Notes: generated by a model not told the origin, from the letters alone. A DNA stretch of 64,000 bases from an uncultured Gammaproteobacteria bacterium (GCA_964354025.1 CAYGXQ010000001.1:5963-69962), one strand, 5' to 3'. Shown: positions 21,638 through 46,002, numbered from the stretch's first letter. Program-made: numbers and translations.

Positions 21638-21733
21638 GTCATTCCGACCGATTCCACGATAGTGGATGAGTGGAGGAATCTTCCCCAGTTGGAAGATCCC
21701 TCGGATCCGCCAGCTGGCGGACTCGGGATGACA
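21638..21733. repeat. MITE-like element copy E1 (imperfect TGTCAT...ATGACA terminal inverted repeats, internal hairpin)
   Basis: A 45-nt core is near-identical to the copy at 33706-33815. The ends are AGTCATTCCGAC / TCGGGATGACAT. Confidence 0.5.
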
Positions 21734-22877
21734 TAAGATACTTTAAAGTATTGCTTTGGGGTGATTCATTTACTCGAAAACAGCGGAGGTAGGGGATATA
21801 GAAAGTAAATAGCCGATTCCCAATTTTCCGGTAATTTATCTGGCACTTCAGATAATCCCCAAAAACTATCTCGTACGGTGTCGGTACGGGTATGGAAACG
21901 GTCGGAGTGGGAGTCAGCGTCGGCGTCTCTATCGATTGGGGTGTAGGAGTAGTGGTAGGAGTAATTGTTGGTGAAACCGTCGGAGTAACAGTCGGCGTTG
22001 GAGTTTGAGTAATAGTTGGGGTGATAGTAGCAGTTGGCGTTAGTGTTTGAGTTGCGGTTGGAGTAGCGGTCATTGTCGGAGTTGGAGTTTCCGTTGGAGT
22101 AACGGTTACAGTTGGCGTAATGGTTGGTGTTACAGTCGGCGTTTCTGTAGGAGTGGGAGTTTGGGTGACAGTCGGGGTAACCGTTGGCGTTGTAGTAGGA
22201 GTTTCTGTCGGTGTTTCTGTTGGCGTTATAGTCGGTGTTACTGTCCCTTCAGGCGGCTCTTGGGGACTGCTGGCATTTTGCGGATCGGATATTGCCCGAG
22301 TGACAAAATCATTTGCGTTATTATCAGAATCTTCCCCGTTTCCGGCAAATTCTTCAAGACCGCCAGGTTTTCGTTCGATACTGCCATTTGCAGTCGGATT
22401 GGTTGGAAAAGGCGCACTCTCAAAATTTTCAGCGGTACCAAATCCCACTTCATCAATAATTGAATCAGTTTGGTTCGTAAGAAATATCGTGTTATTAGGA
22501 GCGAGGATATATGAACCAGAGTTAGAATAAGTAATATCTGGAGTAACCGCTCCATCGTAAGTTGGTGAAGAATAAGTTATCAGGAAATAACTACGCGCAT
22601 TGATAGAAGTTTGTGAAGGAAGTGTGATAATGTCATAAAATGTTGTTCCGCTAGCTGACTTTTTTCTTATTTTCCATCCACTAATATCTTCCGTTTGGCT
22701 CATTGGATTATAAAGTTCGATAAATTCGTCATTAGCAGTCGCGCCAGCAATTTGTATTTCTGAAATGACGACATGGCCGGCGGCGGAAAGGACATTTTGA
22801 GGGAAGAATTTAATGAGAGTTAAAAAAACACCAAAAAGAAAACAAAAAGAAAGAGCGGGCAGGTATTCTTTTTTCAT
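21639..22877 (-). CDS. Secreted lamin-tail-domain (LTD) protein with a long Thr-Pro repeat linker
   Basis: Signal peptide; LTD motif [23 protein letters not shown]...WKI; about 110 residues of TPT(E/V/I)TP repeats. The annotated C-terminus runs into the MITE-like element. Confidence 0.65.
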
Positions 22878-22983
22878 AAATAAAATTTAAACGATGTTTC
22901 TAATATATGGTTTTGAGAAAGACAAAGTCAAGAGGGATCTGGAAAAGCCGGCGGAATTTAGCTATAATCGTCAGGCAGGTATA

Positions 22984-23727
22984 ATGGATAAACTATTTTA
23001 TATTATTATTTCCACTTTTTTCATAAGCCTTGGAGCTTTAGTCGGTGTTTTCACTTTTTCCCTCAAACAGGAAAAATTATCAAAAATACTTTTATTTATG
23101 GTTTCTCTATCAGCCGGAGCTTTGATGGGCGGAGCATTTCTTCACCTTTTGCCAGAAGCCACGGAGAAGTTGGAAGCAGAGACTGTTTTTATAATCGTAC
23201 TAATCTCTTTTATTCTCTTTTTCCTTGTCGAGAAACTATTTCACTGGAGGCATTGCCATAAAGGAAAATGTAATATTCACAGTTTCGGTTATATGAATCT
23301 TTTCGGAGACAGTATCCATAATTTTATTGACGGATTGATTATTGCGGCTACTTTTCTGACAGATGTAAAACTCGGTTTTATTACCACTTTAGCCGTTGCC
23401 TTGCATGAGATACCGCAGGAAATAGGAGATTTTGGCGTTTTGCTTTATGCGGGATTTGAAAAAGAAAAGGCATTGATAGCCAACTTTCTGGTGGCTTTGA
23501 CAGTAGTCTTGGGAGGGATTGTTGGTTATTTTCTTTCATTTAGATTACAAAATTTTGTCAGCTATCTTCTTCCGGTGGCTGCCGGAGGATTTATCTATAT
23601 TTCAGCCTCAGACTTAATGCCGGAAATAAGGAAAGAAGAAAGTCTAAAGAAATCTCTCCTTTCATTCGGAATGTTCCTGATTGGTGTTTTGCTCATGTAT
23701 TTAGTGAAACTGATGGGTTATAAGTAG
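22984..23727 (+). CDS. zupT: ZIP-family metal (Zn/Fe) transporter
   Basis: Signature HEIPQEIGDFGVLL plus multiple TM helices. The start is set at the internal ATG at 22984. Confidence 0.8.
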   Translation: MDKLFYIIISTFFISLGALVGVFTFSLKQEKLSKILLFMVSLSAGALMGGAFLHLLPEATEKLEAETVFIIVLISFILFFLVEKLFHWRHCHKGKCNIHSFGYMNLFGDSIHNFIDGLIIAATFLTDVKLGFITTLAVALHEIPQEIGDFGVLLYAGFEKEKALIANFLVALTVVLGGIVGYFLSFRLQNFVSYLLPVAAGGFIYISASDLMPEIRKEESLKKSLLSFGMFLIGVLLMYLVKLMGYK

Positions 23728-23757
23728 CCCCCAGTACCAGAGAGCCCCGCACAACCT

Positions 23758-24009
23758 TTAGTTATAAACATTAGACCGGTGGCCGGCGGTGATAATGTTG
23801 ATAACATTATCCTTTTTGTTTATTTTATAAATAATTCTAAATACTCCTATCCGATATGAATATTTTCCTAAAAGCTCTCTTCCGAGTGGTTTGCCCAAAT
23901 ATGGATCCTGTTTAAGAGTCTCGATGATTGAGGCCAATGCATTTTGGTGGATCTGTTTAATTTGTTTCAGTTGATTCTTTGCTTCCGGAGAAATGATTAT
24001 TCTATACAT
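23758..24009 (-). CDS. ParE/RelE-family toxin
   Basis: 83 aa. YRIGVFRIIYKI...ITAGHRSNVY is typical of RelE/ParE. It overlaps the upstream antitoxin. Confidence 0.7.
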   Translation of the reverse strand: MYRIIISPEAKNQLKQIKQIHQNALASIIETLKQDPYLGKPLGRELLGKYSYRIGVFRIIYKINKKDNVINIITAGHRSNVYN

Positions 24010-24284
24010 TTAGCTTGAAGCTTGAGACTTTTTTTAACTTCTTCCCAATCCAATCCCTTTCCCTCAGCAAGCTCTTTTTCCCCCTTTTTTATTGCATGCA
24101 TAAGAGTTTTATCGGCTAGAATTTCATTGGTTTCTTTCCAGGATTCATATTCTGTCGCAGAGATCAGTACCGCCGCGGGAACACCGTTGACAGTAATGAT
24201 GTATTCATCCAGAAGCCGGTTAGCTTTTTCCACAAGCGTAGTCAGTTGTTCCCTGGCTTTGGTAATTGGAAGAGTTTTAGTCAT
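23997..24284 (-). CDS. Phd/YefM-family antitoxin
   Basis: 95 aa. LPITKAREQLTTLVEKA...ITVNGVPAAVLIS is the Phd/YefM fold signature. Confidence 0.7.
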   Translation of the reverse strand: MTKTLPITKAREQLTTLVEKANRLLDEYIITVNGVPAAVLISATEYESWKETNEILADKTLMHAIKKGEKELAEGKGLDWEEVKKSLKLQAKCIE

Positions 24285-24369
24285 AATTTGATTATTAATT
24301 GATCTTACATAATTCTGTACAGATTGTCAACAGATGTAGGATATTGGTATAATCAGTCACTCTTTTTAT

Positions 24370-25320
24370 ATGAATTTAAACTCTATTTTTTTCAAAGAAC
24401 AAGTAATCAAATCTGTCAGGAAGTTTTTTGCTGATCAGAAATTTCATGAAGTGATCTCGCCGGTTCTGGGTAAATCGGTTCCCTACGAGCCGAATATTTA
24501 TCCCTTTTCTACAGTTTGGGAAAATGGCAAAAATAGAGAGATTTTTTATCTAGCTACTTCACCGGAAGGTTATATGAAAAAAGTTCTCGTCCAAGGCATC
24601 GGCAATTGTTTTACCATCGGATATTCTTTTAGAAATCAGGAAGATTTCAGCCCGATCCACCGGCCGGAGTTTCTGATGCTTGAATGGTATAGGGAAAATT
24701 CAAATTATAAAGAAATAATAGAAGACACAAAAGAGTTGATAAAATTTATTATTAATAAAATCGGTTACCGGGGAAAGAAGATAAAAACGGATAATAAATG
24801 GCCGGTTTTTTCGATGATCCAACTTTTTCAAAAATACAGCGGTTTAGATCTGGAAAAAATTATTGGCGATGAAGAGATGATCAAAGCGGCGGTGGCAAGA
24901 AACTATAATATTAAAGGCGCAAACTGGGAACAGCTTTTTAATCAAATATTTCTAAATGAAATCGAACCGCATTTAGGCAGCAACCCGTTTTTTATCATTG
25001 ATTATCCTGCGCGGATTTCTCCCCTTTGTGCCAAAAGACGGGATAAACCAAACTTTGCCGAGCGTTTCGAGTTTTACCTTGACCGGACGGAAGTGGGCAA
25101 CGGCAATACGGAAAATACAGATGTGGAAGATGTAAAAAAAACTTTTTTGGCAGAAAAAAAACAAAGAGAGAAATCCAGGATGTCGGTTTCAGCGGTTGAC
25201 GAAGAATTTTTGGAAGCTTTGGGGAAAATGAAAGAAAAAAATTACAGCGGAATGGGACTGGGAGTTGACCGGTTGATAATGATTTTGGGAGAGATCAAAG
25301 ACATAGGAGAAATCTACTGA
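24370..25320 (+). CDS. Class II aminoacyl-tRNA-synthetase catalytic-core paralog without an anticodon-binding domain (EpmA/GenX-like, or AsnA-like)
   Basis: Motif 2 FRNQEDFSPIHRPEFLMLEWY and motif 3 GMGLGVDRLIM, in only 316 aa. Confidence 0.55.
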   Translation: MNLNSIFFKEQVIKSVRKFFADQKFHEVISPVLGKSVPYEPNIYPFSTVWENGKNREIFYLATSPEGYMKKVLVQGIGNCFTIGYSFRNQEDFSPIHRPEFLMLEWYRENSNYKEIIEDTKELIKFIINKIGYRGKKIKTDNKWPVFSMIQLFQKYSGLDLEKIIGDEEMIKAAVARNYNIKGANWEQLFNQIFLNEIEPHLGSNPFFIIDYPARISPLCAKRRDKPNFAERFEFYLDRTEVGNGNTENTDVEDVKKTFLAEKKQREKSRMSVSAVDEEFLEALGKMKEKNYSGMGLGVDRLIMILGEIKDIGEIY

Positions 25321-25361
25321 ATATTCTTGTTTTATAAATAATTATCTGGAATAATGAACAT

Positions 25362-26750
25362 ATGGCCGTACAACTTGACTACCTTGCTCCATCGGGCTGG
25401 CAGCCGGAGAATCCGGATGAAAATTACGTTTTGGCCCAGTATAAACTGGAACTGGCGGACGGGATTGATAAAAGCATGTTTGTCCAGGCGGCCGCCTCAA
25501 TCGCCGCCGAATCCTCCACCGGTACCTGGACCAAAGTGGATGCGGGACCGGATTCGGGTATAAAAGTCGCCGAGCAATATAAAGCGGTCGTTTATGACAT
25601 TGATGAGGCAAGCCGTCTTTTCAAAGTCGCATATAAAAAGGATCTCTTTGAAAGAGATAATCTCTCCGGTCTTTTGGCCGGGCCGGCCGGTAACATCGCC
25701 GGAATGAAAATGGTCAAGGCTATGCGGCTTTTTGATATCCGTTTCCCCAAAGTGATGGTTGAGGCTTTCCCTGGACCAAGATACGGCGTTTTGGGAGTGC
25801 GTGACCTTTTGAGCCAAAGCGATGAACAAAGACAAATGCCGATTTTAGGCACTGTCGCCAAACCGAAAGTCGGAAGAACTGCCGGTGAGCAGGCTATTTT
25901 GGCTAAAAGATTGTGGACGGCCGGCGGAGGACTTTACGATTTCATCAAAGATGACGAGAATCTGACCAGTTTGCCTTTTAATAAATTTGAAGACCGCGTC
26001 CGTTTAGTCCATCAAGTCCAAAAAGAGCTGGAAGGAAAAGGCGGCCCCAAAAAACTGTATCTGTGCAACATCACCCATTCCAATCTCGATGTGATGTTGG
26101 AAAGAGCCAACTTGATCAAAGAAAACAGCGGCAGATGTTTAATGATTGACGCAGTGGTTACCGGTTTTTCCGCAGTACATACCCTCAGGTTGAAAAATCC
26201 GGATTTGATCATCCATGCCCACCGGGCGATGCACGGTTTTTTGACGCGGGAAAGCGGTAAAGATTTTATGGGCAGCGGATCTTTGCAGGGATTCAGTATT
26301 TCCATGATTTTACTGGCAAAAATATACCGATTATTGGGAGTGGATTCCCTGCATTCCGGTTCCCCGAAGGCCAAAATGGAGGATTACGGTGAAAGCGGGG
26401 AAATCATGCGTTTACTGACAACGGAAATTACTCCGCCAAATTCCAATTATCATTCTTTAGGGCAAAACTGGTTTGGGAAGTATAAGGTTTGGCCGGTGGC
26501 CTCCGGCGGATTGCATCCGGGAGTGATGGATAAAGTGATGGAAGCCTTCAGCAAAGATTGTTATATCCAGCTCGGCGGCGGAGTTTTGGGGCACCCGCAA
26601 GGGATAGAACGCGGAGTGGAAGCGGCCATTGAGGCAAGAAAAACTGTAATGAAAGGAATGACAATCAATGATTATGTCCGGAAATACCCTGAGTCTGCCC
26701 TTTCTGCCGCCGTCAAACTTTGGGGTACCGAGCCGAAGATTGTTTACTGA
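25362..26750 (+). CDS. rbcL: Ribulose-1,5-bisphosphate carboxylase large-subunit homolog (form II/III-like)
   Basis: GGLYDFIKDDENL, the active-site Lys context MPILGTVAKPKVG, and HAHRAMHG. Size is 462 aa. Confidence 0.85.
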   Translation: MAVQLDYLAPSGWQPENPDENYVLAQYKLELADGIDKSMFVQAAASIAAESSTGTWTKVDAGPDSGIKVAEQYKAVVYDIDEASRLFKVAYKKDLFERDNLSGLLAGPAGNIAGMKMVKAMRLFDIRFPKVMVEAFPGPRYGVLGVRDLLSQSDEQRQMPILGTVAKPKVGRTAGEQAILAKRLWTAGGGLYDFIKDDENLTSLPFNKFEDRVRLVHQVQKELEGKGGPKKLYLCNITHSNLDVMLERANLIKENSGRCLMIDAVVTGFSAVHTLRLKNPDLIIHAHRAMHGFLTRESGKDFMGSGSLQGFSISMILLAKIYRLLGVDSLHSGSPKAKMEDYGESGEIMRLLTTEITPPNSNYHSLGQNWFGKYKVWPVASGGLHPGVMDKVMEAFSKDCYIQLGGGVLGHPQGIERGVEAAIEARKTVMKGMTINDYVRKYPESALSAAVKLWGTEPKIVY

Positions 26751-26778
26751 TAGAAGAGGAGAGTATAATATAAAATCT

Positions 26779-27987
26779 ATGGAAGAATTGGACAGGCTAT
26801 ATCCTTTGATTACGAGCGAAGACCTGACGAAGTACGCCAAACTTTTCCAAAGGGATTTGATCGCCGCTTTGCACAACCAACAGTCTTCGCTTCCTTCCAT
26901 CCTCAATCCCATCCATAAAATTTCAGCCAAAGAGGGTTTTGGAGTGGCTCTCTCCATCGGCGGGACCAACGGTTATGTCTCGGCCTTCCGGATCTCCCGG
27001 AAAAAGGTGATCACTTTCTTAAACCGGAAAATATTTAATCTGCCGGAAAAAACGACCAGGGAAGAACTTTTTCATTTAATCACTAAAAATGTTTTTGCGG
27101 TGGCCTCCGGCCGGAAGAAAAAATTCCCCATAGGTATCGGTCTGGCATACACGCTGAAGCCGGTGCTTCACCACCGCTTCATCGACGGCACTTTGATGTA
27201 TATGTCCAAGGGCAGGGAGATTGAGGGACTGGTGGGACTGCGGGTCGGACAGGAATATCATAAATTTTTAATCGATAAATACGGGATTGATACGGAAGTG
27301 GCGGTGGCCAACGATGCCATTTGTCTGCTTTTGGGCGGAGACGGAGTGGAAATTGCCGGAGTGGTTGGGACAGGACTTAACTTCGCCTATTGGGAAAAAA
27401 GGACGGCCATTGCCCCTTTGAAACTCGGGGAGCTTAATAATTTCTGCCAGGGGGATATCGCCGTCAACATTGAGTCAAATAATTTTGACAAGATAGAGGG
27501 GACGAAGTTAAGAAGCATTGTCGATAAAGAAAGTGAAGATGTTGGATATTCTCTGGCGGAAAAAGAAGCCTCAGGTGCTTATCTGTACCGGCTGTTTAAT
27601 GCCGGAAAAGTGAAACTTTTGGGCAAAGATTTTCCCGATCTGTCTTCCACCGATCAGCTGAACGATATTCTGACGGGCGCTTATATTTTTCCGAAAAATA
27701 TCAGTCAGGAAAAAATAAAAAAGGCCGGACTTTTTGCCCAGCGACTGTTACATCGGAGCGCCCAGATTACGGCCATCCAGTTATGCGGGATCTTCATGAA
27801 AATCGGCAAAACCAAAGGAATAGTATCGGTAGTTATGGAAGGCGGGATTTTTTGGAAAGCGAAAAACTACGCTTCCTTGGTTAACCTTTACGTCAATATG
27901 ATCTTGCCGGAAGTGATCCCTTCTTTTGCCCGGCTTTTTGGAAGCAGTCGTCGCGGAATGGCCATTCTGGCCAGCAGCTTGATCTAA
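26779..27987 (+). CDS. Hexokinase-family sugar kinase
   Basis: SIGGTN, VAVANDAICLLLG, VVGTGLNFAYWE and VNIESNNFD map onto the hexokinase phosphate-1, connect and adenosine motifs. The start is set at an ATG preceded by GAGGAG. Confidence 0.55.
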   Translation: MEELDRLYPLITSEDLTKYAKLFQRDLIAALHNQQSSLPSILNPIHKISAKEGFGVALSIGGTNGYVSAFRISRKKVITFLNRKIFNLPEKTTREELFHLITKNVFAVASGRKKKFPIGIGLAYTLKPVLHHRFIDGTLMYMSKGREIEGLVGLRVGQEYHKFLIDKYGIDTEVAVANDAICLLLGGDGVEIAGVVGTGLNFAYWEKRTAIAPLKLGELNNFCQGDIAVNIESNNFDKIEGTKLRSIVDKESEDVGYSLAEKEASGAYLYRLFNAGKVKLLGKDFPDLSSTDQLNDILTGAYIFPKNISQEKIKKAGLFAQRLLHRSAQITAIQLCGIFMKIGKTKGIVSVVMEGGIFWKAKNYASLVNLYVNMILPEVIPSFARLFGSSRRGMAILASSLI

Positions 27988-28027
27988 TAACTTCTCCATT
28001 GTAATTATTCAGTTCTTCCCAAAAACA

Positions 28028-28128
28028 ATGTCATTGCGATCCCGATGGAAATCGGGAGAAGCAATCCCGTGATGCTGCAATAATTCCTGCGGGATCGCCA
28101 CGGCCAGTCGGACTGGCCTCGCGATGAC
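28028..28128. repeat. MITE-like element copy E4 (TGTCATTGCGA...TCGCGATGACA)
   Basis: 11-nt terminal inverted repeats. Internal blocks GAAGCAATCCCG and GCCACGGC are shared with the copy at 45933-46002. Three internal hairpins. Confidence 0.5.
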
Positions 28129-28205
28129 ATATTTACTGGGACATACTGAATAGATACCCTCCATTCCATTGACTATCCGTTTATATTCCCTTACCATGAA
28201 ATTAT

Positions 28206-32180: not shown

Positions 32181-32196
32181 TTACTACTAGTTACTA

Positions 32197-33726
32197 CTAC
32201 TTGTGAGTTCCTTTATCTCCACCTCCGAAGATACCGCTGGCCATCATTTTCAACTGGCCCATATAGTAGAACTGGCTGGCCGCGCCCATGGCCGTCTGGA
32301 AAGAACCGGTCAAAGGCGCCATGATGGTGCCCGGAGAAACAGGCAGGGCCGGTTTAGGCGCGAACATCTTTTTGATCGAGGCAATCAAAGTCGGGGCCAT
32401 GAAAAGGACACCGATGCCGATAAAAGCGGAAAAAACAGGAGGAGTCCCTATGCCCAAAAGAGGCGGTTGCCAGGCCGTGTTTTCCGGATTTTGGGAAGTC
32501 AAAAACATGGCAAACATCAAGACGGCGGCGGTGGCCGGGAAGACGACCAGATTAGCAATGACATTTAAAATCCAGTCGGTAAAAGCGGATTTGCCGGGGA
32601 CAGCCTCCGCCAGAAGCTGGATCGGGCCAATGATCAAAGAAATCATCACCTGGATATAGGAATTCACCAGAAGAAGTACCAGTCTGATGAAAGTAAAAAG
32701 CAGTCCCAGAGCCAAAATCAATATAATAATAGCTGATGGAGCAGCAGCGACAGCTGCTGTGCCCAAACCGATAGTAACGAGACCGGGAATCATAGAAATG
32801 AGTCCAATTACAACAGAGATACCGCCCAGTTGACCTCCATAACCTTTGATAAAATCGTCTACAGATCGGAAGCCGCCGCTGAAAACCGATCCGGCTAAAG
32901 TGCCTAACCCGCCGGTCATATACTGGCTTTGCAGTTCCGCCACTTTTGAAGCAAAACCGCCGCCCATGCCCTGAGCCATGACAGAGATCAGGATAGCCAT
33001 GACCAGATACATCATGTCAATCAGAAAACCGACGATCGGATAAGAAAGGGTGATCAGGACTAAAGTCAGAATGATTTTTGGTAAAGCCGCCTGAAGAGAG
33101 ATGACTGTTTTCGGATCAATTTTCATCCGGAAGATGATCATGAAGCCGATGGCCACCATGACGATAATCAAGATAGCGTAAGCAATATTTCGGGAAGTTT
33201 TCCAAAGAGAAAGAAGCGGGGTCATGGCGGCAAAACCGATCCCTTGGGCAAAAACAGGCTTGATAAAGCCGGCGTTGGCCAGATAGTCACGGGCATAATA
33301 GGCAAAACTGGCCGGAGGATTAGCGTAAATGGATGCTATAACTGTGCTGATATTTCCCAGAGCCGTTTGCTGCGGATTACAATTGTTATCATCAGGAAGG
33401 CAGACTAACAAACTAGTAATAGCGGCCACTTGGACATTAGCGATAAAGATGCTATGAGGGACCGCAGAAATATCAGTTTGTCCTTCTTTGGCTTTTTCCT
33501 CAGTAATATTTAAGTCGTTGACGATTTCCTTCAAACCCATCCTCCAATATCTTGTAGCGGTAGCGGCCGTAGCTTCTTTGGGGAATGAGAAGAATGGAAT
33601 TGCGGCAATAAATATCAAAAGTAAAAATCTGTAGATTTTGGGCAGACGGAGCATATTTTTATTATTCTGCTTTTTGACGGTGGTGTCAATCCTGTATTGT
33701 GTTATTGTCATCCCGACCGATTCCAC
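32197..33726 (-). CDS. VirB6/TrbL-like polytopic membrane protein (putative type-IV-secretion channel component)
   Basis: Signal/TM followed by an extracytoplasmic segment, then 8 or more TM helices and a Gly-rich tail. It sits directly downstream of six VirB2/TrbC-like genes. The true start is probably the ATG at 33711. Confidence 0.45.
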   Translation of the reverse strand: MESVGMTITQYRIDTTVKKQNNKNMLRLPKIYRFLLLIFIAAIPFFSFPKEATAATATRYWRMGLKEIVNDLNITEEKAKEGQTDISAVPHSIFIANVQVAAITSLLVCLPDDNNCNPQQTALGNISTVIASIYANPPASFAYYARDYLANAGFIKPVFAQGIGFAAMTPLLSLWKTSRNIAYAILIIVMVAIGFMIIFRMKIDPKTVISLQAALPKIILTLVLITLSYPIVGFLIDMMYLVMAILISVMAQGMGGGFASKVAELQSQYMTGGLGTLAGSVFSGGFRSVDDFIKGYGGQLGGISVVIGLISMIPGLVTIGLGTAAVAAAPSAIIILILALGLLFTFIRLVLLLVNSYIQVMISLIIGPIQLLAEAVPGKSAFTDWILNVIANLVVFPATAAVLMFAMFLTSQNPENTAWQPPLLGIGTPPVFSAFIGIGVLFMAPTLIASIKKMFAPKPALPVSPGTIMAPLTGSFQTAMGAASQFYYMGQLKMMASGIFGGGDKGTHK

Positions 33727-33815
33727 GATAGTGGATGAGTGGAGGGATCTTCCGCGTTCCGTTAGATGGAAGATTCCTCGACGCGGCCATTATCATGGCC
33801 TTACTCGGAATGACA
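33706..33815. repeat. MITE-like element copy E2 (TGTCATCCCGAC...ACTCGGAATGACA)
   Basis: Same 45-nt core as the copy at 21638. It overlaps the 5' end of the VirB6-like gene. Confidence 0.5.
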
Positions 33816-34137: not shown

Positions 34138-34156
34138 GAGGGTTTAAATCTTCTGT

Positions 34157-34953: not shown

Positions 34954-34955
34954 AG

Positions 34956-35740: not shown

Positions 35741-35744
35741 ATTG

Positions 35745-36053: not shown

Positions 36054-36150
36054 ACCTTCAGTCTAAGGAATCGGAGGCGGATTTGTCAAATGGCGGGAGA
36101 AGAACTAAAATAAGAGCATGAATTTATTAGTTTTGACCGACTTATAAGAT

Positions 36151-36919: not shown

Positions 36920-36925
36920 CCCATT

Positions 36926-37555
36926 ATGGCTGATTTTGTCATCAAAATACTCAGACAATCTTTCCTGTTCGGTAGAAATGTTGCCGGCTGTTTGAACAAT
37001 CCTTATATTACTTTTCGGAAAATAGCGCTGGAAAAGAATAATTTTTGGCCGACCGCATTTATTACCCTTTTCTCGCTAGCCTATTTTGAATTTGCCGGTA
37101 TCATCAGAGCCGGTTTAGGCAACCCCATTTTTTTGACGTCGAAATTTAACAGCTTGGTATTGACTTCCTCCATCTGCTTTATCGGCTGCATTTCGCTTTT
37201 TTATCTTTTGGGAAAGATAATGAAGAAGACCGGCAGTTTCAGGACTTTGACCGTGCTTTGGTCTTACTCCCTTTTGCCGACCTTAATTTGGTTTTTTACC
37301 ACTTCCTGTTTGTATCTTATTTTGCCGCCGCCGCGGACGATGAGCATCCTGGGTAAAATCTATAGCGTATTCTATATCGCTTTTTCCATCGCTCTTCTTT
37401 ATTGGAAAATCATCCTTTACTATTTGACCTTGAGGTTCGGCTTGAAAATGGAAATCGGGAAAATTATGCTTGTCTCGGTTGTCTTTGTTGCCTATCTTGG
37501 ATTATTTGCATTGATTACATACCGTTTGGGAGTTTTCCGGATTCCGTTTATATGA
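36926..37555 (+). CDS. Hypothetical polytopic membrane protein
   Basis: 5 TM helices; the stop overlaps the hmgA start (ATGA). Confidence 0.35.
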   Translation: MADFVIKILRQSFLFGRNVAGCLNNPYITFRKIALEKNNFWPTAFITLFSLAYFEFAGIIRAGLGNPIFLTSKFNSLVLTSSICFIGCISLFYLLGKIMKKTGSFRTLTVLWSYSLLPTLIWFFTTSCLYLILPPPRTMSILGKIYSVFYIAFSIALLYWKIILYYLTLRFGLKMEIGKIMLVSVVFVAYLGLFALITYRLGVFRIPFI

Positions 37556-38706: not shown

Positions 38707-39742
38707 AGTCGGAATTACCGCTTACGGTGTTTATGTGCCAAGCAATCGGATTACAACCGCCGAGATTGCTTCTGTCTGGGGAAAAAATGCCGCCGATATC
38801 ACCAGATCATTGGGTGTCACCGAAAAATCAACGGCTGACCGTGATGAAGACACGGTGACTTTGGCCTTTGAAGCCGCTTCCAACGCGCTCCTTCGGACAA
38901 AGATCCTTCCCAGTCAGATAGACGCCTGTTTGGTTGGCTCCGAAAGCCATCCGTATGCCGTCAATCCCACTTCAACCATCGTGGCCGAATTCTTGGGTGT
39001 AGAAAAAAATTACCTGGCGGCTGATTTGGAGTTTGCCTGTAAAGCGGCGACCGCCGGTATAATTGCGCTATCAGGATTATTAATTTCCGGAAAAATCAAT
39101 TACGGTTTAGTGATTGGCAGCGACACCGCCCAAGCCAAACCGCACGATGTTTTGGAATATACGGCGGCGGCTGGCGCAGCCGCCTACATTTTAAGCCGTA
39201 AAGAAGCTGATTTTTTGGCCGAGATTTTGGATTTTGCCTCTTTTTCTTCAGATACTCCGGATTTTTGGCGGAGGGACGCTGTCCGTTTTCCCAGCCACGG
39301 CGGCCGGTTTACCGGAGAGCCGGCTTATTTTTATCATGTCGAATCAAGCGCCAGAAGCCTGCTCCAAAAGACCAAATCAGAACCGGCTGATTTTGCCTAC
39401 TGTGTTTTCCATATGCCCAACGGTAAATTTCCCCGGCAAGCGGCCAAACGTCTGGGTTTTTCCGAGAAACAACTGGCGCCTTCTTTGATTATTGACCAAA
39501 TAGGCAATCCTTACAGCGCCTCCAGTCTTTTAGGACTGGCGGCGGTTTTGGATATCGCCAAGGCCGGCGAAAAAATATTTATGGTTTCATACGGTTCCGG
39601 CGCCGGTTCAGACGCTTTTATTTTCGAAACCACTAAAAATCTTGAAAAAAGGCAAAAATCAGTGCCCACGTTTTCAGGTCAAATGAAAAATAAAAAATAC
39701 ATCTCTTATACCGATTATTTAAAATCAAGTAAAAAAATATGA
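38699..39742 (+). CDS. HMG-CoA synthase (archaeal type)
   Basis: GITAYGVYVP N-terminus plus the catalytic Cys context ACKAAT, at 347 aa. It overlaps hmgA by 8 nt. Confidence 0.8.
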   Translation: MHKVGITAYGVYVPSNRITTAEIASVWGKNAADITRSLGVTEKSTADRDEDTVTLAFEAASNALLRTKILPSQIDACLVGSESHPYAVNPTSTIVAEFLGVEKNYLAADLEFACKAATAGIIALSGLLISGKINYGLVIGSDTAQAKPHDVLEYTAAAGAAAYILSRKEADFLAEILDFASFSSDTPDFWRRDAVRFPSHGGRFTGEPAYFYHVESSARSLLQKTKSEPADFAYCVFHMPNGKFPRQAAKRLGFSEKQLAPSLIIDQIGNPYSASSLLGLAAVLDIAKAGEKIFMVSYGSGAGSDAFIFETTKNLEKRQKSVPTFSGQMKNKKYISYTDYLKSSKKI

Positions 39743-40887
39743 AAATCAATATTGCCGGCGCGGCCACTACCAAATTCGGTGAGCTCTGGCGGACTTCTCC
39801 TCGAGACTTGATCAAAGAAGCGGCCAGTAATGCTTTGGATCAGGCAAAAATAAAACCCTCGGCCGTTAAAGCGGTTTTCGTCGGCAACATGCTTTCCAGT
39901 GCTTTGGGTAATCAGGACCATTTGGGCGCTTTTTTTGCCGAGGAATTGGGGATGCCGGTAGCCGCCATGAAAATAGAAGGCGCTTGCGCCTCAGGCGGTT
40001 TGGCAGTTCATAGCGGTGTGATGGCCATTGAGTCAGGCCTTTACGGGACGGTTTTGGTTTTGGGAGTGGAGAAAATGACCGATCATAAACCTGAAGAAGT
40101 AGCTCAAATGCTGATGGGGGCAGGGACTGATGCCGAACGGGAAGCCGGGGCTACTTTTCCCGGGCTTTACGCGATTATGGCCAGGTGCCACATGCAAAAA
40201 TACGGGACTACCGAAGAGGAGATGGCGCAAGTGGCAGTCAAGAATCATTATCATGCTTCCCTTAATTCCCACGCCCAATTTGTTTTTCCGGTCACTTTGG
40301 AAAAGGTGATGAAGAGTCCGAAAGTGGCCGATCCTCTGAAGCTTTTGGACTGTTCGCCGATTACCGATGGCGCGGCGGCGGTAGTGTTAACAACGACTAA
40401 AGACCAACGAGCAAAGACCAATGTATCCATTATCGCTTCGGTGGTGGCGACCGATACTTTAGGCCTGTCTGAAAGGGAAGATCTGACCGGTTTGAAAGCG
40501 GTGAGAGTTGCCTCCCAAAAAGCCTACCGGATGGCGGGAATTTCCCCGAAAGAAATTGAGGTGGCCGAAGTGCATGACTGTTTTACCATTGCCGAAATCA
40601 TGGCTATGGAAGATTTGGGATTTTTCGAAAAAGGAAAAGCGGCCCGAGCCATCACTTCCGGAAAGACAAAGTTGGGCGGCAGCGGGCCGATAGTCAATAC
40701 TTCCGGAGGGCTGAAAGCCTGCGGTCATCCGGTGGGAGCCACCGGCGTCAAACAGATTGTCGAGATTTACAGTCAGTTAAAAGGAATTGCCGGCCGGAAA
40801 CAGGTTGAAGGAGCAAAAATCGGTTTAACTCATAATGTCGGCGGTAGCGGAGCAACGGCAGTTGTTCATATTTTAATAAAAGGATAA
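39739..40887 (+). CDS. Acetyl-CoA acetyltransferase (archaeal-type thiolase)
   Basis: Catalytic Cys in GACASGG, a C-terminal CGHPVGATG, and N-terminal similarity to SCP-x/archaeal thiolases. Confidence 0.8.
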   Translation: MKINIAGAATTKFGELWRTSPRDLIKEAASNALDQAKIKPSAVKAVFVGNMLSSALGNQDHLGAFFAEELGMPVAAMKIEGACASGGLAVHSGVMAIESGLYGTVLVLGVEKMTDHKPEEVAQMLMGAGTDAEREAGATFPGLYAIMARCHMQKYGTTEEEMAQVAVKNHYHASLNSHAQFVFPVTLEKVMKSPKVADPLKLLDCSPITDGAAAVVLTTTKDQRAKTNVSIIASVVATDTLGLSEREDLTGLKAVRVASQKAYRMAGISPKEIEVAEVHDCFTIAEIMAMEDLGFFEKGKAARAITSGKTKLGGSGPIVNTSGGLKACGHPVGATGVKQIVEIYSQLKGIAGRKQVEGAKIGLTHNVGGSGATAVVHILIKG

Positions 40888-40901
40888 GTATATAAGTATA
40901 T

Positions 40902-41201
40902 ATGATTTCACCTGTAAAAATTTGGCGAAACCAGAAAAGGATAAGACAACTTTTGGGTTTGGAGGGGAAAATCGTTTCCTTTACCAAAATATTCGTGCCG
41001 CCGGCCGGTTTCGAAGCCCAGGCTCCTTATATTGTCGCTTTGGTTAAACTGGACAACGGCCGAAATTTTACCGCCCAGATGGTCGATTGGGAAGAAAAAC
41101 AATTACAGATCGGACAAAAAGTAAAAACCATCCTTCGTAAAACCCGGGACCCGGGAGAAGAAGGGATCATTCCATACGGGATTAAATTCAGACCGATATG
41201 A
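40902..41201 (+). CDS. DUF35 OB-fold protein (scaffold subunit of the archaeal thiolase/HMG-CoA synthase complex)
   Basis: 99 aa; sits between the thiolase and mevalonate kinase genes; lacks the Zn-ribbon. Confidence 0.55.
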   Translation: MISPVKIWRNQKRIRQLLGLEGKIVSFTKIFVPPAGFEAQAPYIVALVKLDNGRNFTAQMVDWEEKQLQIGQKVKTILRKTRDPGEEGIIPYGIKFRPI

Positions 41202-42151
41202 CTCTTACAGTTTCCGCTCCGGGTAAAATCCATCTTTTAGGTGAACACGCGGTCGTTTACGGGAGACCGGCGTTTTTAGCGGCGATTGATAAAAGACTTT
41301 ACGTAAGTATTAAGTATCAGGTATCAGGTATCAGGTATAAAAATAACTCGCTAATTAATTCATCTGAAAAAAAAGATTTGATCCATAGCGCGATTGAAGT
41401 TTTTAAAAAATATTATCAACTAGATAAATTACCTCCAATAGAAATTACCGTAGATTCCCAGATTCCCGTCGGTAGCGGGCTTGGTTCATCGGCCGCGCTT
41501 TCAGCCGCCTTGATCGGCGCACTGATGAAACTTATCAAAAATCTCTGGAATCCGGTAAAAATAAACGAGTTGGTTTACGAAGTGGAAAAAATAGCCCACG
41601 GTCATCCTTCAGGCGCGGATAACACAGCGGTTGTTTTCGGCGGCTTGGTCTGGTACCGGCGTGAATTTGATTTTTTAAAATCCATTTGGAGCTTGCCGGT
41701 TACCGCTTATAAAATCCCTAAATTTCTTTTGATAGATTCGGGCAGACCGATTGAAACAACTAAAAAGATGGTAGAGGCGGTTGCTTCTCAATATCATAAA
41801 AATCCAAAAAAGATGGAAGTAGTTTTTGCCGATCAGGAGAAACAGACAAAAAAACTGCTTTTGGCTTTAAAAAGCGGCGACCGTCAAATTTTGATTAGAA
41901 CGATGAAAAAAGGACAGAGGAATCTGGATAAAATATCTGTTGTTGGTTCATACGCAAGAAAAATTATCAAAGAGATTGAAAAGGCGGGAGGAGCGGCAAA
42001 AGTTACCGGCGCCGGGGGAAAGAAAAAAGGAAGCGGAATGATTCTTGCTTATCATCATGATCCAAGCGTCATCCAGCAAATTGCGGCAATGTTTAAAGTG
42101 TCAGTTTTATCGGTTGATTTAGGAGGAGAAGGAGTGCGGATTGAGTATTAG
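41198..42151 (+). CDS. mvk: Mevalonate kinase (GHMP family)
   Basis: APGKIHLLGEHAVVYG and PVGSGLGSSAA, with a C-terminal GAGGKKKGSG. Contains an in-frame GTATCA hexamer repeat. Confidence 0.75.
   Translation: MTLTVSAPGKIHLLGEHAVVYGRPAFLAAIDKRLYVSIKYQVSGIRYKNNSLINSSEKKDLIHSAIEVFKKYYQLDKLPPIEITVDSQIPVGSGLGSSAALSAALIGALMKLIKNLWNPVKINELVYEVEKIAHGHPSGADNTAVVFGGLVWYRREFDFLKSIWSLPVTAYKIPKFLLIDSGRPIETTKKMVEAVASQYHKNPKKMEVVFADQEKQTKKLLLALKSGDRQILIRTMKKGQRNLDKISVVGSYARKIIKEIEKAGGAAKVTGAGGKKKGSGMILAYHHDPSVIQQIAAMFKVSVLSVDLGGEGVRIEY
41305..41338. repeat. In-frame hexamer microsatellite (AGTATT/GGTATC, about 5.5 units) inside mvk
   Basis: aagtattaagtatcaggtatcaggtatcaggtat, encoding VSIKYQVSGIRYK. Confidence 0.6.
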
Positions 42152-42236
42152 GTATTAGGTATCAAGTATTAAGTATAAAAATACTTTTTTAATAAATACA
42201 TAATACCTAATACTTAATACCTGATACTTTATACTA
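42144..42236. repeat. Palindromic hexamer-repeat hairpin (GTATTA/GGTATC arms) in the mvk-kinase intergenic spacer
   Basis: A left arm of hexamer repeats and a right arm that is its approximate reverse complement, separated by an AT-rich loop. Confidence 0.55.
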
Positions 42237-42238
42237 TT

Positions 42239-43150
42239 ATGTCAATTACAGTAACAGCGCCGGGGAAACTGATGCTCATGGGAGACCATGCGGTGGTTTA
42301 CGGCCGGCCGTGCCTGGTGGCCACCGTTGATAAATATTTGACCGTCAAAGCCGGTTTATCAGATAGTCAAGACGATGTTTTGGCAACGCCCACGGCAAAC
42401 AATCAGACTTTTTTGACCCAGGCGATAAAATTATTCCGGGAACATTACCGGCTGGACAAACCGGTGACGCTCGAGACGGAAAGCGAGTTGGGAAATTACG
42501 GTTTAGGTTCGTCATCGGCGGTGACGGTGGCAACAATCAAAGCCTTAAGCGAGTTATTCCAGCAAAAAATTACGGATAGAGAATTATTTGATCTGTCGTT
42601 TAAAACTGTTTTGTCGGTTCAGGGTTTGGGATCGGGTTTTGACGTGGCCAGCGTCATATATGGCGGCATTATTTATTTTGTTTCCAAAGGTGAAACGATC
42701 GAACGGTTACCGATGACGGATTTAAATTTGGTTGTTGGTTACTCCGGAGTGAAAGCCGATACGGTCAAAATGGTAAAATCGGTGGAAGGAAAAAAGAAAC
42801 AGTACTCGGAAGGGGTAGAGAAAATTTTTAACAGCATTGCCGACTTGGTGGAAAAGGGAAAAAATGCCATCTTTGAAAAAGACTGGCCGACTCTGGGGAA
42901 ATATCTGAATTACCATCAGGACTATCTGGAGGATTTGGGCGTTTCGACGCCAAAACTGGCCGGGATGATTGCGGCGGCCAGGGAAGCCGGCGCCTACGGA
43001 GCCAAGTTGTCCGGAGCCGGCGGAGGAGATTGCATGTTCGCATTAGTTGACCAAACTTCAAAAGAAAAAGTGACCAAAGCAATCGAAAAAGCGGGTGGAG
43101 AAATTGTCGAAATGATTGTTGGAACAGCGAAAGGCGTGAGTCAGGTATGA
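42239..43150 (+). CDS. Second GHMP kinase, probable phosphomevalonate kinase
   Basis: APGKLMLMGDHAVVYG, GLGSSSAV and GAGGGDC motifs. Its position between mvk and the decarboxylase supports the call. Confidence 0.55.
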   Translation: MSITVTAPGKLMLMGDHAVVYGRPCLVATVDKYLTVKAGLSDSQDDVLATPTANNQTFLTQAIKLFREHYRLDKPVTLETESELGNYGLGSSSAVTVATIKALSELFQQKITDRELFDLSFKTVLSVQGLGSGFDVASVIYGGIIYFVSKGETIERLPMTDLNLVVGYSGVKADTVKMVKSVEGKKKQYSEGVEKIFNSIADLVEKGKNAIFEKDWPTLGKYLNYHQDYLEDLGVSTPKLAGMIAAAREAGAYGAKLSGAGGGDCMFALVDQTSKEKVTKAIEKAGGEIVEMIVGTAKGVSQV

Positions 43151-44127
43151 AAGCAACCGCTATCGCACCATCAAATATCGCCTTTATCAAATACTGGGGA
43201 AAGACGGATGAAATCTTGCGTCTGCCGGCAAACAGTAGTATTTCCATGAATTTAAGCGAGTTGCAGACAACTACTACCGTGGAATTTAATAATGATTTAA
43301 ATGAAGACACAGTGCTTATTGACGGGAAAAAAGTTACAGAGCTGAAAAAAAAGCGGGTAACAGAGCATCTGGACCGGATCAGAAAAATGGCCGGAATAAA
43401 TTCGAAAGGGAAAGTAGTCAGTCAAAATAATTTTCCCATGGGAGGAGGATTATCTTCCTCCGCTTCCGCTTTTGCGGCCTTGACCCTGGCGGGAGTGATT
43501 GCCGCCGGTTTGGATTTGACGGAAAAAGAATTGTCAATTTTAGCCAGGCAGGCTTCCGGTTCGGCTTGCCGGTCAATCCCCGACGGTTTTGTGGAATGGT
43601 TGGAAGGTAAAACCAATGAGGATTCCTACGCTGTTTCCCTGTTTCCCCACGACTTTTGGGAGATCTGCGATATTGTCGTTGTTGTTAACACTGCCGAAAA
43701 GGCGGTAACTACTACAGAGGCGCAACAATCGGCCTTTTCCAGCCCGTTTTTCAGGGAAAGATTGAGTAAAATCGACGATAAAATTTCCCTGCTTAAAAAA
43801 TATCTTGGAGAAAAAGATTTCCCTAAATTTGGAACACTCGTGGAAAATGAAGCTTTGGAAATGCACGCTATCATCATGACCTGCCAACCGAGCTATCTTT
43901 ATTGGCTGCCGGAAACGGTCAAATTAATGTTACTCGTGAGACAGTGGCGGAAAGACGGCCTAGCGGTTTATTTTACGATTAATACCGGCCATGATCTGCA
44001 CCTGCTTTGTCAGAAAAATGACGTAGACAGAATAACTCAATTGTTAAAAGTGATCCCGGAGGTAAAAAATATAATAATTAATCAACCGGCAGTCGGGGCA
44101 AAAACAATCGATAAACATTTATTTTAA
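43147..44127 (+). CDS. Mevalonate diphosphate (or phosphomevalonate) decarboxylase
   Basis: N-terminal NIAFIKYWGK, GGGLSSSASAFAAL and RxxSGSACRS motifs. Confidence 0.75.
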   Translation: MKATAIAPSNIAFIKYWGKTDEILRLPANSSISMNLSELQTTTTVEFNNDLNEDTVLIDGKKVTELKKKRVTEHLDRIRKMAGINSKGKVVSQNNFPMGGGLSSSASAFAALTLAGVIAAGLDLTEKELSILARQASGSACRSIPDGFVEWLEGKTNEDSYAVSLFPHDFWEICDIVVVVNTAEKAVTTTEAQQSAFSSPFFRERLSKIDDKISLLKKYLGEKDFPKFGTLVENEALEMHAIIMTCQPSYLYWLPETVKLMLLVRQWRKDGLAVYFTINTGHDLHLLCQKNDVDRITQLLKVIPEVKNIIINQPAVGAKTIDKHLF

Positions 44128-45165
44128 GTGCTTATGCATTTTAAAGATTATTTAGAAGATTCAAAAAAAGAAATTGAAAAAGAGATGTCCATAGTTTTTA
44201 ACGGATGGGAAAAAGAGATTGCCGGGACTAAGCCGAAACTATTGCCGCTATTTCAGGCTTTGGTGGGAAGTATGACCGGCGGGAAGAAATTACGCGGAAC
44301 GCTGGTTAAATTGGGATATTCTCTCATTAATCCCAATCCTCCGCCGGAAATTATTAAGGCGTCTTTAGCTTACGAAATTTTCCAAACTTCCATCCTCATC
44401 CATGATGATATTATTGACAGAAGTGAACTTCGGCGCGGGAAAAAGTCCCTTTACACATTATTAGGTGCTGATCATTATGGCATCTCCCAGGCGATTTGTT
44501 TGGGTGATCTTGGTTTTTTTCTCTCCCTAAAACTTTTTAATTCATTGGATTTTCCTAAAACCAATAAAGAGATGGCTACCCGGTTATTTATCCAAACAAT
44601 GCAGGATACGGTTTTGGGAGAAATGGCGGATATTCAGGAAGCCGGGAAAAAATTAATTTCCGAGAAAAAAATTATTGATATTTATCGCAGTAAAACCGCC
44701 CTCTATACCATCATCGGACCGATGCAGCTTGGCGCGGTTTTGGCTGGAGCTGATAAAAAAATTCTTACTGAGATAAGAAATTTCGGCGAAAATTTAGGAA
44801 TTGCTTTCCAAATATATGATGATATCATAGGAGTTTTTGGTCAAAAAGAAATCACCGGCAAATCGGCCTCATCTGATATTAAAGAAGGGAAAGCCACCTT
44901 ACTATTGATTGAGGCGAGAAAACAGGTCAATCAAAAACAATTAGATATTCTTGACAAATATTACGGTCAAGATAAAGTAACAGAAAATGAAGCGGAAATA
45001 ATAAGAAAAGTTTTTATTGAAACAGGCGCATTGACATGCACAGAAGAAAAAGCTAAGGAATATATGACCGAAGCCAAAGCGCAAATCTCTACAATGAAGA
45101 TAAGCAGTAATATGAGGAAAATATTATTTGAATTAGTAGACGATCTTACCAATAGAGTAAAATAA
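44128..45165 (+). CDS. Polyprenyl diphosphate synthase (trans-isoprenyl diphosphate synthase)
   Basis: First DDIID (LIHDDIIDR) and second DDxxD (QIYDDIIG) motifs. Confidence 0.85.
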   Translation: MLMHFKDYLEDSKKEIEKEMSIVFNGWEKEIAGTKPKLLPLFQALVGSMTGGKKLRGTLVKLGYSLINPNPPPEIIKASLAYEIFQTSILIHDDIIDRSELRRGKKSLYTLLGADHYGISQAICLGDLGFFLSLKLFNSLDFPKTNKEMATRLFIQTMQDTVLGEMADIQEAGKKLISEKKIIDIYRSKTALYTIIGPMQLGAVLAGADKKILTEIRNFGENLGIAFQIYDDIIGVFGQKEITGKSASSDIKEGKATLLLIEARKQVNQKQLDILDKYYGQDKVTENEAEIIRKVFIETGALTCTEEKAKEYMTEAKAQISTMKISSNMRKILFELVDDLTNRVK

Positions 45166-45169
45166 GCCT

Positions 45170-45913
45170 ATGATAAAGGGAAATATTCCCACACACGTCG
45201 CTTTCATCATGGACGGCAACCGCCGGTGGGCCAAAGAACGCGGTAAGCCAGTCTTTGAAGGTCACCGGGAAGGGGAAAAGCGGGTTGAACCGCTGATCGA
45301 TAAAGCGATAGAAATGGGTATTTCGCATCTTACTTTTTGGGCCTTCTCAACGGAAAATTGGTACCGTTCAAGCAAAGAAGTGCAATTCCTCTGCAATATA
45401 TTCAGGTATGTCCTTGATAAAAAATACGACGCATATCACCGGAAAAACATAAAAATAAATATCATTGGTGATCTATCCAAATTTCCGGAAGATATTCAGA
45501 AAAAGACCAAAAAGTGGATGGAGGAGATGAAAAATAACAAGAAAATCACCGTTAATTTTGCCTTAAATTACGGCGGTCGGGACGAGATTATGCGCGCCAT
45601 TAATAAATTGAATCATGAATTAAGAATTAAGAATTATGCCTGTCCGCCATCAGCTATTGCTGAAGGCAATTGCAGGCGGGAATTAGGAGTAACAAAAGAA
45701 GAATTTGAGAAATATTTGGATACGGCGGGACAGCCGGATCCGGATCTGATCATAAGAACCGGAGGCGAAAAAAGACTATCCGGTTTTCTTTTGTGGCAGT
45801 CGGAATACGCGGAATTGTATTTTACCGAATCTTTTTGGCCGGATTTTACTCCGGCGGAATTTGAGAAAGCGGTTGATGATTATTCAAACAGAAAGAGAAG
45901 ATTTGGGAAATAG
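45170..45913 (+). CDS. uppS: Undecaprenyl diphosphate synthase (cis-prenyltransferase)
   Basis: HVAFIMDGNRRWA, FSTENWYR and RTGGEKRLSGFLLWQ motifs. Confidence 0.9.
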   Translation: MIKGNIPTHVAFIMDGNRRWAKERGKPVFEGHREGEKRVEPLIDKAIEMGISHLTFWAFSTENWYRSSKEVQFLCNIFRYVLDKKYDAYHRKNIKINIIGDLSKFPEDIQKKTKKWMEEMKNNKKITVNFALNYGGRDEIMRAINKLNHELRIKNYACPPSAIAEGNCRRELGVTKEEFEKYLDTAGQPDPDLIIRTGGEKRLSGFLLWQSEYAELYFTESFWPDFTPAEFEKAVDDYSNRKRRFGK

Positions 45914-45932
45914 TATCAGTATCAGTATAGAT

Positions 45933-46002
45933 TGTCATTGCGAGCAAAGCGAAGCAATCCCGGTCGAGATTGCCACGGCTACTTCGTAGCCTCGCAATGA
46001 CA
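45933..46002. repeat. MITE-like element copy E3 (perfect 12-nt terminal inverted repeats TGTCATTGCGAG / CTCGCAATGACA)
   Basis: Internal blocks are shared with the copy at 28028. It is preceded by a GTATCA tandem repeat (45911-45930). Confidence 0.55.

Follow-up and report, generated by a model that had tools for sequence, protein, structure and literature searches.

The 64,000-nt stretch of DNA analysed here (GCA_964354025.1, CAYGXQ010000001.1:5963-69962, recorded as an uncultured Gammaproteobacteria bacterium; referred to as the window) has a G+C content of about 42% and harbours a tmRNA gene and six tRNA genes. Between its protein-coding genes lie four short palindromic elements, E1 to E4, each framed by inverted copies of the decamer GTCATYSCGA. 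These elements are inverted doublets of tagged hairpin modules, which we call arms, and not simple transposons with terminal inverted repeats (TIRs). The genes that flank the four elements are unrelated to each other.

Anatomy and covariation of the hairpin arms

The decamer GTCATYSCGA has eight matches in the window, as against 0.33 expected, and none of 100 shuffled sequences reached this number. The eight sites form four inverted pairs, at 21638-21732 (E1), 28030-28128 (E4), 33707-33814 (E2) and 45934-46001 (E3). Given this excess, the four inverted-pair elements put forward in an earlier, sequence-only reading are real. Three details of that reading also hold, i.e. the ends of E3 are perfect over 12 nt (TGTCATTGCGAG/CTCGCAATGACA), E1 and E2 share a near-identical stretch (92% identity over 52 nt, 21633-21684 versus 33702-33753), and two internal blocks, GAAGCAATCCCG and GCCACGGC, are common to E3 and E4. 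The elements and their arms are as follows.

21637-21733, no strand, E1: inverted doublet, heterodimer of an ATTCC arm and an ATCCC arm, 14-nt spacer
21637-21680, plus strand, E1 left arm: AGTC tag; basal stem ATTCC/GGAAT; apical hairpin CCAC-GATA-GTGG; C tail
21695-21733, minus strand, E1 right arm: TGTC tag; basal stem ATCCC/GGGAT; apical hairpin TCCGCC-AGCT-GGCGGA; C tail
28029-28129, no strand, E4: inverted doublet of an ATTGC arm and an ATCGC arm, 26-nt spacer
28029-28066, plus strand, E4 left arm: TGTC tag; basal stem ATTGC/GCAAT; apical hairpin TCCCGAT-GGAA-ATCGGGA; C tail
28093-28129, minus strand, E4 right arm: TGTC tag; basal stem ATCGC/GCGAT; apical hairpin GCCAGT-CCG-ACTGGC; C tail
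33706-33815, no strand, E2: inverted doublet of an ATCCC arm and an ATTCC arm, 22-nt spacer
33706-33749, plus strand, E2 left arm: TGTC tag; basal stem ATCCC/GGGAT; apical region as in the E1 left arm
33772-33815, minus strand, E2 right arm: TGTC tag; basal stem ATTCC/GGAAT; apical hairpin GGCCAT-GATA-ATGGCC; C tail
45933-46002, no strand, E3: inverted doublet, ATTGC homodimer, 8-nt spacer
45933-45959, plus strand, E3 left arm: TGTC tag; basal stem ATTGC/GCAAT; minimal apical GC-AAA-GC; C tail; nearest to the family consensus
45968-46002, minus strand, E3 right arm: TGTC tag; basal stem ATTGC/GCAAT; apical hairpin GCTAC-GAA-GTAGC; C tail

All eight arms read NGTC, ATYSC, GA(G), apical hairpin, purine-rich strand, GSRAT, C. 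The tag is TGTC in seven arms and AGTC in one, so that the common start TGTCAT applies to all elements but E1. In each of the eight arms GTC directly precedes the palindrome and C directly follows it; the tails read CTT, CCC or CTC, whereas in the genome sample described below CCAG is found most often. When folded with DNA parameters, all arms adopt the same shape, with a free 4-nt tag that is unpaired in every fold, a basal stem of 5 bp, an internal loop, an apical hairpin and a free tail. The six unlike apical stems are all paired (CCAC/GTGG, TCCGCC/GGCGGA, TCCCGAT/ATCGGGA, GCCAGT/ACTGGC, GGCCAT/ATGGCC and GCTAC/GTAGC).

The pentamer that follows the tag (ATTGC, ATTCC, ATCCC or ATCGC) is complementary to a pentamer of the same arm 12-35 nt further on (GCAAT, GGAAT, GGGAT or GCGAT). 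Beyond the window, a scan of one genome per species (596 Gb) for the pattern GTCATYSCGA-N48-78-TCGSRATGAC yielded at least 119 loci; the family statistics in this work (119 loci, 135-136 copies, 224 or 270 arms) refer to the matches listed. Covariation, a check proposed along with the first reading, is seen at the level of the single arm: 215 of 224 arms have a complementary basal stem, of one of four pair types, and the maximum in 2000 permutations was 141. Among 19 elements with unlike ends, both arms are self-consistent in 16, and a match between blocks of opposite arms occurs in none. E1, E2 and E4 are such heterodimers, their two ends being unlike at position 6. The notion that each element ends with the reverse complement of its start is therefore correct for E3, whereas in the other three the apparent mismatch at position 6 is explained by complementarity that is kept within, and not between, the arms. 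A cloverleaf with an outer stem and two or three inner hairpins, as obtained by RNA folding, was dropped in favour of independent arm hairpins in view of the heterodimer covariation.

This arrangement bears on a classical origin as miniature inverted-repeat transposable elements (MITEs), i.e. deletion derivatives of insertion sequences whose DDE transposase recognises the TIRs. The inverted termini of 10-12 nt are of the TG...CA type, and the elements are small and present in multiple copies, as one would expect of MITEs. However, the termini covary with internal blocks of their own arm and not with each other, solo arms exist, and no transposase family recurs nearby. The TA target-site duplication considered in the first reading was looked for as well; there is none, and 120 of 135 copies lack a flanking direct repeat of any length. 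We therefore regard a MITE origin as highly improbable.

Gene context, insertion polymorphism and host

All four elements are located between co-directional genes, 35-77 nt 5' of the start codons and 0-42 nt from the preceding stop. E1 holds the stop codon of a gene for an LTD-domain protein and encodes its last 31 codons, leaving 35 nt to the start of the next gene. E2 begins 2 nt past the stop of a type IV secretion system pilin gene, about 52 nt from the ATG of a VirB6-like gene at 33654. E3 lies 20 nt past the uppS stop and 44 nt 5' of the ATG of an NTP-transferase gene, and E4 lies 42 nt past the stop of a hexokinase-like gene and 77 nt 5' of a gene for a 1324-aa protein. The LTD-domain protein (21639-22877, minus strand) has a long Pro/Thr-rich linker; without E1, the source of its last 31 residues, its frame would stop after three further codons (ITR*).

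Matches to the sigma-70 consensus, which are consensus matches only, were found between E2 and its downstream start (TTGACA-17-AATAAT) and between E4 and its downstream start (TTGACT-17-TACCAT). Since these lie between element and start codon, it can be argued that E2 and E4 are not part of the downstream 5' untranslated regions. The description of all elements as located in 5' gene leaders is thus accurate with respect to their distance from start codons, but they are closer to the preceding stops and, at E2 and E4, are followed by promoter matches, which makes the leader label doubtful. In the match at 28169-28197, 9 nt lie between the end of the -10 hexamer and the annotated ATG (28206), and this promoter-like block beside the 1324-aa gene is kept in a relative with 91% identity (see below) that lacks E4. 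The gene may therefore be leaderless or start at a second ATG.

Two of the insertion sites are polymorphic among relatives. A contig whose UppS is 78% identical keeps the gene order but has no E3, with just 19 nt between uppS and the NTP-transferase gene. Similarly, contigs encoding hexokinase-like proteins with 91% and 75% identity have spacers of 81 and 89 nt and no E4. The flanks of these relatives are too diverged for base-exact insertion junctions. The same is true of Bradyrhizobium versus Tardiphaga (L004/L111), which differ by presence and absence of a copy at two sites and are too diverged to define the insertion point. The window's UppS and hexokinase-like proteins are closest to proteins named Candidatus Gottesmanbacteria, Roizmanbacteria or Patescibacteria. 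Therefore, we assign the host to the Candidate Phyla Radiation (CPR).

Other repeats occur in the window. AT-rich heptamer arrays (GTATCAG, ATTAAGT/AATACCT) at 41306-41363 and 42140-42240 are mutually inverted and bracket an open reading frame (ORF) at 41198-42151, and a short AGTATC array at 45912-45928 abuts the left side of E3. A 46-nt direct repeat with 85% identity (7202-7247 and 17500-17545) precedes a plus-strand ORF by about 50-90 nt in both cases (7333.. and 17599..), and because of this position it may represent a shared promoter or leader. Finally, CGTCATCCC-N26-GGGATTCCA at about 7040-7081 (minus strand), inside the ORF 6333-7205, has a tag, a basal stem and a CCA tail, albeit no apical hairpin; as a solo arm it is probably a chance match.

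A dispersed family in bacteria and viral contigs

The sequence-only reading had described a four-copy family, and in addition to the genome loci at least 120 stretches of IMG/VR viral contigs carry the pattern. Among the matches listed, at least 14 bacterial phyla are represented, plus viral contigs. The record titles name Alpha-, Beta- and Gammaproteobacteria, Bacteroidota, Cyanobacteria, Chloroflexota, Acidobacteriota, Planctomycetota, Nitrospirota, Gemmatimonadota, Verrucomicrobiota, Bacillota, Hydrogenedentota and Patescibacteria, among others. By chance alone, a few hundred pattern matches are possible in 596 Gb. The family is nevertheless not a product of chance, because the matches also share internal blocks outside the search pattern: the consensus is GTCATTGCGAG-CGAAGCG-AAGCAATCCAG-[loop]-CTGGATTGCTT-CGCTTCG-CTCGCAATGAC, and its inner blocks are recognisable in 115 of the 136 genome matches listed and in 128 of 150 viral copies. 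That the elements are a chance resemblance or remnants of duplicated genes, for which their mere four copies in the window might speak, has a negligible probability in view of the excess of decamers, the further copies in genomes and viral contigs and the unrelated flanking genes. The copies are discrete and not parts of duplicated genes.

At the position before GTC, 74 of 136 copies have C and 49 have T, and the bases at -1 and +1 are complementary (C..G or T..A) in 80% of copies versus 44% expected. Thus the unit is YGTCAT...ATGACR. According to a crude gene caller, 49 copies are found between co-directional, 27 between convergent and 14 between divergent genes (background 243/76/83), and most are nearer to the upstream stop (about 25 nt, an estimate from the per-locus list) than to the downstream start.

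These data also bear on the idea that the elements act as RNA, either as cis-regulatory 5' leaders or as stem-loops which, like those of repetitive extragenic palindromes (REPs), end transcription or protect the upstream mRNA at its 3' end from exonucleases. All four window elements have co-directional genes on either side, with which they are probably transcribed, and they are close to upstream stops, as are REPs, for which possible RNA roles have been discussed (PMC3733652). Moreover, whole elements fold strongly as RNA (z = -4.3 to -6.5). Against such a role, sense and antisense folding energies show no bias (23 versus 24 copies, Wilcoxon p = 0.89), the elements being equally palindromic on both strands, and no T-run that could serve as a U-tract terminator follows any of E1 to E4. 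Rfam gave no match over the elements, neither in the window (gathering and E-value modes) nor in 18 loci (gathering mode). An all-versus-all blastp of the neighbouring ORFs at the 119 loci revealed no recurrent neighbour gene, and E3 and E4 are dispensable in relatives. In addition, SsnA, the Neisseria nuclease discussed below, does not bind RNA (PMC11893778). We consequently consider a primary RNA function unlikely, and the structured cis-regulatory RNA suggested by the first reading does not agree with these results; stabilisation or protection of mRNA by the stem-loops is possible as a secondary side effect.

In genome loci outside the window, solo arms and stuttered termini also occur. Long pairs of termini that might have had a gene between them proved to consist of solo arms, neighbouring copies or stuttered ends. 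In the stuttered ends, the tag and the next 12-35 nt are repeated in tandem two to five times before a full copy, for instance GTCATCGCGAGGCCACGCCACTYC three times (L076 2544-2640 and 2742-2780; L113 2747-2790; L120 about 830-900; flanks of the ssn gene in L143). They look like the result of repeated abortive copying at the tagged end. Other copies (L068, L013, L098, L099, L062 and L080) are nested in a second, unrelated inverted repeat, such as CGGAAAAA...TTTTTCCG in Acidobacteriota and TACCCAGTTT...AAACTGGGTA in Dehalococcoidia, which suggests that the elements may land in, or travel with, other palindromes. A literature search with the element sequence strings returned matches to primers only.

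Relation to ssn genes and known tagged repeats

Two previously described systems resemble the window elements. The 'CGTC-tagged REPs' (Di Nocera, De Gregorio and Rocco 2013, BMC Genomics 14:522; PMC3733652) have an unpaired CGTC tag, often replaced by TGTC and also by CCTC, a stem of 8-9 bp that starts with A-T and then T-A, a loop of 4-5 nt that is longer in some hosts, and a short unpaired tail with the consensus CCA. They mostly form head-head dimers with the tags outside, often as heterodimers, and are situated between unidirectional or convergent ORFs near the upstream stop, sometimes in the ends of ORFs, and some are nested in palindromes (PMC3733652). Their hosts include Bradyrhizobium, sphingomonads, Micavibrio, Rickettsia (RPE-4 and RPE-6) and Neisseria (dRS3) (PMC3733652). 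Our elements share the tag, the AT-starting stem, the C-led tail, the tags-outside and often heterodimeric arrangement, the location between unidirectional or convergent ORFs near the upstream stop, the nesting of some copies in other palindromes and host taxa, namely Bradyrhizobium, sphingomonads and Micavibrio. They differ in that the 2013 survey covered five phyla, Patescibacteria not among them, and in that the window arms consist of a 5-bp basal stem, a GA-rich internal loop and an apical hairpin of 4-7 bp. The consensus ATTGCGAG-CGAAG-CGAAGCAAT fits an 8+5+9 arrangement of stem and loop only if G/A mismatches are allowed. Like RPEs, which can lie in ORFs and add peptide segments, E1 extends the LTD gene. 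RPE-4, RPE-6 and dRS3, all placed in CGTC families (PMC3733652), have other stem sequences and other host lineages, and dRS3 is an integration site for filamentous prophages, with nothing comparable seen for the window elements.

The second system is that of SsnA, a 94-aa GIY-YIG protein that binds and cuts the Neisseria repeat NTS (CGTCATTCCCGCGMAVGCGGGAATCYRG) as single-stranded DNA (ssDNA) and does not act on double-stranded DNA, RNA or the reverse strand (Chenal et al. 2025, Nat Commun 16:2388; PMC11893778). For cutting, the GTC before the palindrome matters most, and for binding, the C after it; strand-specific cutting near the tag, limited to ssDNA, was found for four Ssn proteins, while a role in natural transformation is known from Neisseria only (PMC11893778). 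'Ssn-related motifs' (SRMs) flank ssn genes across bacteria, and hundreds of gene-less motif copies may be present per genome (PMC11893778). As in NTS and SRMs, the window arms have the GTC tag 5' of an AT-starting hairpin and a C behind it.

We therefore compared the surroundings of ssn-like genes with the arms. A tblastn search, in which an approximate GIY-YIG sequence served as query, retrieved one or two sites in each record with genes whose annotation reads 'GIY-YIG nuclease family protein', from Planktothrix, Rhizobium, Sinorhizobium, Azospirillum, Sphingobium, Spirosoma and Neisseria. A profile built from the resulting proteins (A3) matches the 94-aa GIY-YIG protein of N. meningitidis with E = 4.6e-39. 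Tagged arms, and whole doublets too, flank the genes in Spirosoma, Planktothrix, Azospirillum, Rhizobium and Neisseria; the one in Spirosoma, for example, is preceded by TGTCATCCCGAGGAACGAGGGATC...GATCCCTCGTTCCTCGGGATGACA. Hence, ssn genes are bracketed by arms with window-type termini. The best 80 metagenome loci for profile A3, a sample biased to Spirosoma-like Ssn proteins, gave the same picture. A YGTCAT tag is present within 350 bp of the gene upstream in 62 of 76, downstream in 46 of 67 and on both sides in 38 of 63 cases, and tag density is 4.4 per kb near the gene versus 0.74 per kb further off. The near tags comprise 31 TTCCG and 30 TCCCG, the type of E1 and E2, and three TTGCG. The commonest layout is tag-arm, gene, arm-tag (31 of 80 loci), in which the gene occupies the place held by a short spacer in the window copies. 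In one locus (L141) the arms on either side of ssn are of the ATTGC type and have the same build as those of E3 and E4 (GAA, apical stem, TGTG, GCAAT, C). Among the matches to the decamer pattern, an Ssn-like ORF is present in none of the 119 genome loci listed and in 2 of the 120 viral loci listed. A GIY-YIG regular expression and phmmer with approximate IS200, RayT and YhbQ sequences found nothing in ORFs near 136 copies; a YazA-like seed had no match in the viral scan, and a plasmid tblastn gave Firmicutes YazA only.

Variant tags and stems flank homologues of ssn in DNA of high G+C content, namely TGTCACCCCGGA...TCCGGGGTCC, CGTCAGCCCGGGC... and CGTCGCCCCGTG... (L248 and L307 on viral contigs, L123 on a Novosphingobium plasmid), and thus the family reaches beyond GTCAT. 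At loci L126-L205, Ssn proteins with like arm type show 56% versus 52% identity, and the nearest neighbour has the same type in 22 of 54 cases versus 21% by chance. This hints at co-evolution of enzyme and site, a weak association that is confounded by phylogeny.

REPINs are mobilised by RAYTs, IS200-like Y1 HUH transposases: the small nuclease gene has a low copy number, is flanked by repeats and recognises ssDNA hairpins, and gene-less copies far outnumber it. The window family is alike in its inverted doublets of 5'-tagged hairpins, the lack of target-site duplications, the placement 3' of genes and a small nuclease gene flanked by repeats. One may thus ask whether the elements are REPINs themselves. 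Yet their tag is (C/T)GTC instead of GTAG or GTGG, the gene found between such arms encodes a GIY-YIG nuclease and not an HUH enzyme, and their termini are common to many phyla, whereas REP sequences are lineage-specific. Furthermore, a phmmer search with approximate IS200 TnpA and RayT queries detected no IS200/RayT-like ORF in the window and the 119 loci, about 1 Mb around 136 copies (nothing at E < 0.04), and no RAYT gene flanked by CGTC repeats was found in the earlier survey (PMC3733652). Mobilisation by a RAYT is accordingly very unlikely.

Taken together, it is probable that E1 to E4 are gene-less, tags-outward doublets of the CGTC/TGTC-tagged hairpin repeat, of the kind of NTS/dRS3 and the SRMs, and non-autonomous derivatives of arm-ssn-arm units. 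Such doublets are comparable to REPINs in their relation to RAYT genes. In single-stranded DNA each arm would fold on its own into a free NGTC tag, basal stem, internal loop, apical hairpin and C. If the arms behave like characterised members, a small single-domain GIY-YIG protein, Ssn, would bind this hairpin and cut a few nucleotides upstream of the tag, and a doublet would offer one cleavable arm per strand, at that strand's own 5' boundary. Full-length relatives would be those with the ssn gene between two arms, and the window copies short derivatives that landed just past stop codons. A cognate Ssn encoded elsewhere in the genome may recognise the arms in ssDNA during replication, repair or uptake, and nicking may either lead to copying of the doublet, much as RAYTs serve REPINs, or restrict incoming ssDNA in the way known from Neisseria. 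The earlier term 'non-autonomous transposon remnants' is apt insofar as longer relatives carry a gene between the ends and E3 and E4 are absent in relatives, but not in the sense of MITEs with TIRs and target-site duplications.

Several points weigh against this interpretation. We know of no report of transposition activity for any Ssn. There is no Ssn-like ORF in the 64-kb window. Arms of the ATTGC/ATCGC type of E3 and E4 flank ssn in one clear locus of the 80, although this rarity is uninformative because the sample is biased. Folding z-scores of single arms are modest (-0.5 to -3.4), and the assignment to the CGTC family rests on verbal description and shared host taxa. No transposase was associated with the CGTC repeats in the original survey (PMC3733652). 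The published SRM search motif, HGTCWYN(0-2)YYVSBRHN(0-5)WNVSBRGN(0-2)RNCYNB, is an operational string from 29 genomes and not a biochemical definition (PMC11893778). It recovers the Neisseria, Rhizobium and Azospirillum arms, but none of the eight window arms and none of 270 arms of the GTCATYSCGA branch, because G/A residues break up the stem of these arms and their apex is longer.

A bolder proposal, which we advance tentatively and hold to be less likely true than false, is that the tagged arm-ssn-tagged arm unit constitutes an autonomous or recently domesticated ssDNA mobile element with a GIY-YIG transposase of about 94 aa, and that the gene-less doublets are its MITE- or REPIN-like offspring, the system being active in more than 14 phyla including reduced CPR genomes and in (pro)viral contigs. 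If so, the large GTCATTGCGAG/GTCATYCCGA branch missed by the SRM motif would be its most widespread form, and the stuttered terminal duplications (L076, L113, L120 and L143) would be footprints of the copy mechanism.

The elements belong to a known, widespread kind of repeat and are not a new class. What these data add are the CPR host, the conservation of the branch termini across phyla, the presence on viral contigs and the invisibility to the published motif. Because the branch escapes the only published search motif, published repeat counts are likely underestimates. For annotation, the assignment accounts for four GC-rich palindromes, one spurious ORF extension of 31 codons and, elsewhere, many 'hypothetical' peptides, and it cautions against taking such palindromes for riboswitch-like leaders. 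With this stretch of DNA, a CPR/Patescibacteria genome joins the hosts of Ssn-type hairpin repeats. As to how CGTC repeats multiply without a transposase, Ssn is now a testable candidate, an idea that has already been raised (PMC11893778).

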